DNA from: Escherichia coli
GTDB lineage: Bacteria; Pseudomonadota; Gammaproteobacteria; Enterobacterales; Enterobacteriaceae
Length of the DNA: 64,000 bases
Assembly: GCF_051903065.1 (NCBI RefSeq)
Contig: NZ_CP178438.1
Strand: one strand, 5' to 3'
Shown here: piece after piece, positions 60,806 through 62,460 of the stretch
Numbering within the stretch: position 1 is the stretch's first letter
How the letters are laid out: each line of letters begins with the position of its first letter
Notes under the pieces: generated by a model
What the model saw: only the letters and a program-made list of their open reading frames with translations
The model's database searches: none
What the model was told of the DNA's origin: nothing
Made by a program: the position numbers and the translations under genes

Positions 60806-61394
60806 ATGAAACTGAAAAAACTCCCCGGGTTTAGTTTAGGACTTATTGCTCTGGCGGTGGGTAATGCATATGCAACACAATTGTTGGATGATTATAGTAT
60901 AATTTCCTATATAACCGATGAAGAATCGCCGATTCAAATCAAAGATAATACTTTGAAAAGTAATGAAGAATATCTAACCACTGAAGACGAAAGTCATGCT
61001 GTGAAAGTGGATGACGGTGTAACTAGATATATAAATAATGCCAGTGTGATGACTAGTGGTGATGGATCTTATGGTATTTCTGTTGATAGTCAAAACAAAG
61101 TATTATATATAAGCGATAGCGATATTAAGACCTCTGGAAGCGTATCTAACAAAGAAAATAACCAAGATGTTAATGGAGGGATAACAGCCAGCGCAGTAGT
61201 CAGTGAATTTGGTGGCACCATCGTTATGAATGGTGATAATTTAGTCGAGACGGGGGGGGCATATTCAGCGGGACTTTTAAGTCAGGTTAATGATTCTGGA
61301 AATGTGGAAAATAACACTCGTCTTGAAACCACAGATAAAACGATCATTGTTACCTCTGGGGAAAATGCAGTAGGTGTTCTTGCATGTTCAAGTC
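60806..61394 (+). pseudogene. ycgH: Autotransporter (ycgH-like) N-terminal fragment, truncated by IS insertion
   Basis: ORF with signal peptide (MKLKKLPGFSLGLIALAVGNAYA) and Ser/Asn/Gly-rich passenger repeats; reading frame runs into the IS left end and stops at 61403-61405. Confidence 0.8.
61386..61394. repeat. 9-bp target-site duplication (left copy) gttcaagtc
   Basis: Identical 9-mer directly flanks both ends of the IS element. Confidence 0.9.
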
Positions 61395-62451
61395 GGCTTT
61401 GTTGAATAAATCGAACTTTTGCTGAGTTGAAGGATCAGATCACGTATCTTCCCGACAACGCAGACCGTTCCGTGGCAAAGCAAAAGTTCAAAATCACCAA
61501 CTGGCCCACCTACAATAAAGCCCTCATCAACCGTGGCTCCATAACTTTCTGGCTGGATGATGAAGCTATTCAGGCCTGGTATGAGTCAGCAACACCTTCT
61601 TCACGAGGCAGACCTCAGCGCTATTCTGACCTTGCCATCACGACTGTGCTGGTCATTAAACGCGTATTCAGGCTGACCCTGCGCGCTGCGCAGGGCTTTA
61701 TTGATTCCATTTTTTCTCTGATGAACGTTCCGCTACGCTGCCCGGATTACAGCTGTGTCAGCAGGCGGGCAAAGTCGGTTAATGTCAGTTTCAAAACGCC
61801 CACCCGGGGTGAAATCGCACACCTGGTAATTGATTCCACCGGGCTGAAGGTCTTCGGTGAAGGCGAGTGGAAAGTCAAAAAGCATGGCCAGGAACGCCGC
61901 CGTATCTGGCGTAAGCTGCATCTCGCCGTTGACAGTAAAACACATGAAATCATCTGCGCTGACCTGTCGCTGAACAACGTTACGGACTCAGAGGCCTTCC
62001 CCGGGTTAATCCGGCAAACCCACCGGAAAATCAGGTCAGCCGCCGCCGATGGCGCTTACGATACCCGGCTATGTCACGATGAACTGCGGCGTAAGAAAAT
62101 CAGCGCGCTTATCCCTCCCCGAAAAGGTGCGGGTTACTGGCCCGGTGAATATGCAGACCGTAACCGTGCAGTGGCTAATCAGCGAATGACCGGGAGTAAT
62201 GCGCGGTGGAAATGGACAACAGATTACAACCGTCGCTCGATAGCGGAAACGGCGATGTACCGGGTAAAACAGCTGTTCGGGGGTTCACTGACACTGCGTG
62301 ACTACGATGGTCAGGTTGCAGAGGCTATGGCCCTGGTACGAGCGCTGAACAAAATGACGAAAGCAGGTATGCCTGAAAGCGTGCGTATTGCCTGAAAACA
62401 CAACCCGCTACGGGGGAGACTTACCCGAAATCTGATTTATTCAACAAAGCC
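61395..62451 (+). mobile_element. IS903-group insertion sequence (IS5 family), 1057 bp, complete
   Basis: Perfect 18-bp terminal inverted repeats ggctttgttgaataaatc (61395-61412) and gatttattcaacaaagcc (62434-62451); single transposase ORF; 9-bp flanking direct repeat. Confidence 0.92.
61472..62395 (+). CDS. IS903-group transposase (DDE)
   Basis: GTG start at 61472 gives 307 aa (MAKQKFKITNWPTYNKALINRGS...); matches IS903/IS102 transposase as recalled; the listed ORF starts 15 codons earlier at TTG. Confidence 0.9.
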   Translation: MAKQKFKITNWPTYNKALINRGSITFWLDDEAIQAWYESATPSSRGRPQRYSDLAITTVLVIKRVFRLTLRAAQGFIDSIFSLMNVPLRCPDYSCVSRRAKSVNVSFKTPTRGEIAHLVIDSTGLKVFGEGEWKVKKHGQERRRIWRKLHLAVDSKTHEIICADLSLNNVTDSEAFPGLIRQTHRKIRSAAADGAYDTRLCHDELRRKKISALIPPRKGAGYWPGEYADRNRAVANQRMTGSNARWKWTTDYNRRSIAETAMYRVKQLFGGSLTLRDYDGQVAEAMALVRALNKMTKAGMPESVRIA

Positions 62452-62460
62452 GTTCAAGTC
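62452..62460. repeat. 9-bp target-site duplication (right copy) gttcaagtc
   Basis: Identical to 61386-61394. Confidence 0.9.

Follow-up and report, generated by a model that had tools for sequence, protein, structure and literature searches.

A complete IS903B element interrupts the autotransporter gene ycgH in a lineage of Escherichia coli

Near one end of the window (the whole stretch of 64,000 nucleotides of E. coli DNA analysed here), an autotransporter gene is broken in two by an insertion sequence. This raises the questions of which element it is, how and when it came to lie there, and what its arrival has done to the host gene. We are highly confident that the locus holds one complete IS903B, which entered ycgH by simple transposition at codon 196/197 in the lineage of the strains 23CRST027 and 23CRST031. 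The features that bear on this reading are as follows.

60806-61394, plus strand: 5' part of ycgH (codons 1-196), encoding the signal peptide and the first portion of the passenger; in the open reading frame list, and a RefSeq pseudogene fragment in 23CRST027
61386-61394, no strand: left copy of the 9-bp target-site duplication, GTTCAAGTC, abutting the left inverted repeat; present once at the empty site
61395-62451, plus strand: complete IS903B (IS5 family, IS903 group), 1057 bp, a 100% match to copies annotated as IS903B
61395-61412, plus strand: left terminal inverted repeat (IRL), GGCTTTGTTGAATAAATC, 18 bp
61472-62395, plus strand: transposase gene, 307 codons from GTG to the stop TGA, with no internal stop in translation
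62434-62451, minus strand: right terminal inverted repeat (IRR), the perfect reverse complement of IRL (18/18 positions complementary)
62452-62460, no strand: right copy of the 9-bp target-site duplication, GTTCAAGTC, abutting the right inverted repeat; present once at the empty site
62461-64000, plus strand: 3' part of ycgH from codon 197, encoding the remainder of the passenger and the beginning of the beta-barrel; RefSeq 'ycgH, missing N-terminus'

The likeness between the two ends of the element fades beyond base 18, and a search of the 64-kb window for GGCTTTGTTGAATAAATC with up to three mismatches gave two matches, at the two ends of the element, where 0.06 would be expected by chance. 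As the repeat occurs nowhere else in the window, the window contains one copy of the element. The probability that two fixed 9-mers are identical by chance is 4e-6. Within the IS5 family, the IS903 subgroup comprises elements of 950-1150 bp with a DDE transposase and a 9-bp direct repeat, and IS903, IS903B and IS102 are each 1057 bp long (PMC8431375). The element in the window has each of these properties: a length of 1057 bp, a direct target duplication of 9 bp (GTTCAAGTC on both sides), inverted repeats of about 18 bp (GGCTTTGTTGAATAAATC) that it shares with IS903 and IS102, and a single transposase frame (307 or 322 aa) with a DDE domain found by Pfam and by NF033579.

Evidence for simple transposition comes from an allele of ycgH that lacks the insertion. 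In E. coli ECNB21-M121 the gene is intact (2664 bp, 887 aa, 'autotransporter YcgH') and identical to nucleotides 60806-61394 of the window over 589 nt (100%), and in the alignment both flanks of the window run continuously through a single GTTCAAGTC. Because the empty site has one copy of this 9-mer between identical flanks, the pair in the window is a true target-site duplication. Removal in silico of the insertion sequence together with one repeat (matching record L003) restores a 2664-nt frame with no internal stop, and the reconstructed protein is identical at 887/887 positions to WP_047624469.1 of ECNB21-M121. Gene order around the insertion is the normal pdeG-ymgF-ycgH-ymgD, and the rest of ycgH has no lesion other than the insertion. 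The host gene is thus identified as autotransporter YcgH by protein identity, by neighbourhood and by a C-terminal autotransporter beta-barrel domain (TIGR01414, 7e-66) in the 3' fragment.

The consequences for YcgH can be read from the two fragments. The interrupted 5' frame continues into the insertion sequence, which adds three foreign codons (RLC) before a stop at 61403-61405, and the 3' fragment, an open frame of 515 codons from 62454 that leaves the window at its end, has neither a start codon nor a signal peptide of its own. Since YcgH is in this way cut into a 196-residue stub (extended by RLC before the stop) and a 691-residue C-terminal part without start or signal, insertion of IS903B inactivates ycgH. 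The gene has also been lost elsewhere: in K-12 MG1655 (record L012, 2601-5248) it is a pseudogene ('frameshifted; internal stop'), and many other strains have two annotated hypothetical proteins in its place. Its loss is therefore evidently tolerated, and ycgH is decaying independently in several lineages. A literature search for ycgH turned up a single paper, of incidental bearing. A separate observation concerns an uninterrupted run of eight G residues at 61252-61259 in the 5' fragment, where the K-12 and SWYHX138 alleles have GGGTGGGG; this run is a potential site of slippage or of sequencing error in the ycgH allele of the window.

The transposase itself appears undamaged. The length of 307 aa is counted from the GTG at 61472, as no ATG yields a protein of that length; the frame is open further upstream, to a TTG at 61427, and the resulting 322-aa form corresponds to the RefSeq CDS WP_000654812.1. 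A search of the literature on the 307-aa start and on Lon instability found nothing specific. The protein matches DDE_Tnp_1_5 (4e-39) and DDE_Tnp_1 (7e-33) in Pfam, and scores 357.6 bits on the NCBIfam model NF033579 ('IS5 family transposase'), for which the cut-off is 140. Candidate DDE residues are D121, D193 and E259 (307-aa numbering), in the motifs VIDSTG, AADGAYD and SIAETAM, which we take to be the catalytic triad of IS903. With its ends and frame intact, and its sequence identical to one that has multiplied widely, this copy of IS903B is likely to be able to transpose. Two antisense open reading frames within the element (61733-61945 and 61747-61977) were regarded as fortuitous. A preliminary description of the locus had already claimed an element of exactly 1057 bp with perfect 18-bp terminal inverted repeats, a perfect 9-bp target duplication, an uninterrupted 307-aa transposase and a position inside an autotransporter gene, and each of these claims agrees with what we found, the last now with a named gene and the transposase with an alternative, longer RefSeq form.

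On the basis of what is known of IS903 and of DDE transposases generally, the event can be pictured as follows. The transposase would have bound both terminal inverted repeats (18 bp each) and joined the 3' ends of IS903B to target phosphates cut with a 9-bp stagger, and repair of the two single-stranded gaps would have produced the duplication of GTTCAAGTC. The insertion arose after the lineage had separated from relatives in which ycgH is identical but uninterrupted. Evidence for both non-replicative and replicative movement of IS903 has been cited (PMC8431375), and a clean insertion does not tell the two apart, because a resolved cointegrate would look the same.

The choice of target has also been considered. 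The preferred target motif of IS903, tabulated in PMC2577343, is WTTYA-N9-TRAAW, and of the 5 bp just outside the duplication (TGCAT on one side, CTGGA on the other) one position in five fits on each side. Judged by these bases, the site in ycgH is not a target of the preferred type; as the motif is a statistical preference, the mismatch is no contradiction, and it is uninformative for the identity of the element. G+C content is 52.7% in IS903B, 36-38% in the 1 kb on each side (60394-63451) and 49.7% over the whole window, and ycgH is markedly AT-rich beside both the element and the window average. A scan of 61300-62560 for promoters and terminators gave one promoter-like and two terminator-like sites, which equals the expectation from shuffled sequence.

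The distribution of the insertion gives an indication of its age. A query of 2051 bp spanning both junctions had an unbroken match at 100% identity in just two of 5426 complete genomes, those of 23CRST027 and 23CRST031, each of which has about 20 IS903B places on its chromosome. Positions 56900-64000 of the window agree with NZ_AP045789.1 (E. coli 23CRST027, a human faecal strain from Ecuador) without a mismatch in 7101 bases, and the coordinates of large open reading frames elsewhere in the window fit the gene table of that record at the same offset; these two strains are the apparent source lineage. The match in 23CRST031 (NZ_AP045800.1, 2337626-2339675) covers 2050 of the 2051 bp, and the G8 run in ycgH is an obvious candidate location for this one-base difference in length. 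The preliminary description had proposed a relatively recent transposition, and this too finds support: because the duplication shows no decay, ycgH is undamaged apart from the insertion, the sequence of the element is one that has multiplied widely and the junctions occur in only two sibling genomes, the data argue for a simple insertion of recent date in a lineage in which IS903B has become numerous.

Other insertions at the same locus bear on the wider question of whether ycgH is hit for a reason. Elements of the IS903 group are present in the ycgH loci of SWYHX138.261ft (record L006, 2327-3382), 2017.17.03CC (record L007, about 3477-4530) and EA7 (record L008, about 1501-2557). The first is a 1056-bp isoform (identical at 911/1057 positions) at about nt 921 of ycgH, flanked by the duplication AAAACAAGA; the second is an IS903B near nt 2070 or so of the gene, and the third an IS903B in the spacer between ymgF and ycgH. 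All three are oriented as ycgH. In HH194M, ET151 and ET450 an insertion sequence adjoins a partial ycgH, and across the 5426 complete genomes the gene or the DNA just upstream has been hit at no fewer than four distinct positions, the one in the window included. One might suppose from this that ycgH is a recurrent target of the IS903 group in E. coli, either by a preference for AT-rich DNA or by selection for loss of YcgH. We consider this doubtful, and the multiple insertions may reflect no more than the tolerance of such events in a gene that is decaying.

Among the alternatives to our reading that the element is IS903B, the most serious is one of naming. It could be argued that the element is canonical IS903 (as in Tn903) or IS102 and not the isoform IS903B, and by the usual ISfinder isoform convention these three are close isoforms of one element. 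An IS903 copy from plasmid A of K. pneumoniae MS6671 (record L005, 3501-4557) is also 1057 bp long and aligns without gaps, with the same reading frame and the same 18-bp ends, at 1013/1057 nucleotides (95.8%) and 299/307 amino acids, thus differing from the element by 44 base and 8 amino-acid substitutions. IS102 of pSC101 (record L004, 6916-7972), again 1057 bp, gapless and collinear and with the same ends, agrees at 979/1057 nucleotides (92.6%) and 293/307 amino acids, with 78 base substitutions. The first and last 20 bases are common to all three, and gene layout is the same. Many copies annotated 'IS5-like element IS903B family transposase', however, are identical to the element at 1057/1057 bases, and other copies carry the RefSeq name IS903 instead: those named 'IS903 family transposase' were matched, at 100% identity, by a 227-nt query from the 5' part of IS903. 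The choice between IS903 or IS102 and IS903B is a matter of isoform naming in which these data favour IS903B, and we think it very unlikely that either of the other names would fit better. IS903B is therefore the more precise name for the element, as judged from RefSeq product names and from the contrast with copies named IS903.

Known copies of IS903B are identical to the element, and only the site at codon 196/197 of ycgH is particular to the lineage. Matches to the element lie at 7192 places in 1993 of the 5426 complete E. coli genomes. At least 5000 plasmids also carry matches, and among those listed most belonged to Klebsiella, Escherichia, Enterobacter, Salmonella and Citrobacter. Elements of the IS903 group habitually produce a 9-bp duplication: in addition to the insertion in SWYHX138.261ft, such duplications flank the copy in record L001 (GTTCTGCTG) and the IS903 of MS6671 (CGTTGAAGT), and the target duplication in ycgH repeats the behaviour of IS903B in K. 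pneumoniae, where disruption of wcaJ leaves 9-bp target repeats (PMC9769513). Record L001 is from E. coli O176:H45 MIN9; its IS903B (6001-7057), identical at 1057/1057 bases, lies directly against the 3' end of another gene with an autotransporter domain, and many ISKpn26 and IS3-family elements share the region. The flanking 9-mers match in all of the IS903 and IS903B copies examined, in contrast to those at the ends of IS102 in pSC101, which are unlike (ACTGAAAGT and GGGTGTGGT) and so point to a subsequent rearrangement beside that copy of IS102.

We find it less probable still that the insertion in ycgH is an artefact of assembly. Multi-copy insertion sequences are a classic source of misassembly, and a repeat could in principle have been collapsed or misplaced into the gene. 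A misplaced repeat, however, would not make a precise 9-bp target duplication, and the same junctions are present in two complete genomes that were deposited separately.

Two further readings hardly deserve credence. The first holds that the insertion sequence bounds a composite transposon on one side, or is a remnant of recombination between insertion sequences or of a deletion or inversion mediated by one; IS903B does form composite transposons and mediate rearrangements (PMC9769513; PMC8431375), and the source chromosome has about 20 IS903B places, but the single copy in the window, the identical flanking 9-mers, the contiguity of both flanks in the intact allele, the intact YcgH obtained on reconstruction and the normal pdeG-ymgF-ycgH-ymgD order all stand against it, and the comparison with the empty site excludes such an origin. 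The second, that the element is IS5 proper and encodes InsH, is no more credible: IS5 and the IS903 group do belong to one family, both with a DDE transposase, RefSeq product names open with 'IS5-like element', and other IS5-family NCBIfam models give weak matches to the transposase (30-36 bits, far below their cut-offs), but IS5 of K-12 (record L010, 3009-4203) is 1195 bp long, ends in 16-bp inverted repeats (GGAAGGTGCGAATAAG) and encodes a 326-aa InsH that shares 24% identity with the transposase of the element over only 92 aa (E = 0.009). The target duplication of IS5 is 4 bp. Length, ends and protein all differ, which refutes identity with IS5; the architecture of the element is unrelated to that of IS5/InsH, and the preliminary assignment to the IS903 group in preference to IS5 InsH was well founded, the database match being to IS903B at 100%.

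In summary, a single complete IS903B has entered ycgH by what we regard as simple transposition. The element is fully known and extremely common, and its insertion into a dispensable gene is a routine event that reveals no new biology, so the importance of the finding beyond annotation is small. For annotation, the element should be labelled IS903B, and ycgH in this genome should be recorded as a pseudogene caused by insertion of an insertion sequence. The insertion is also a marker of its lineage (two of 5426 genomes, 23CRST027 and 23CRST031) and could serve in strain typing. In clinical Enterobacterales, IS903B knocks out genes for capsule, porins and other surface structures, and the insertion in ycgH adds one more case to the expansion of IS903B among these bacteria.
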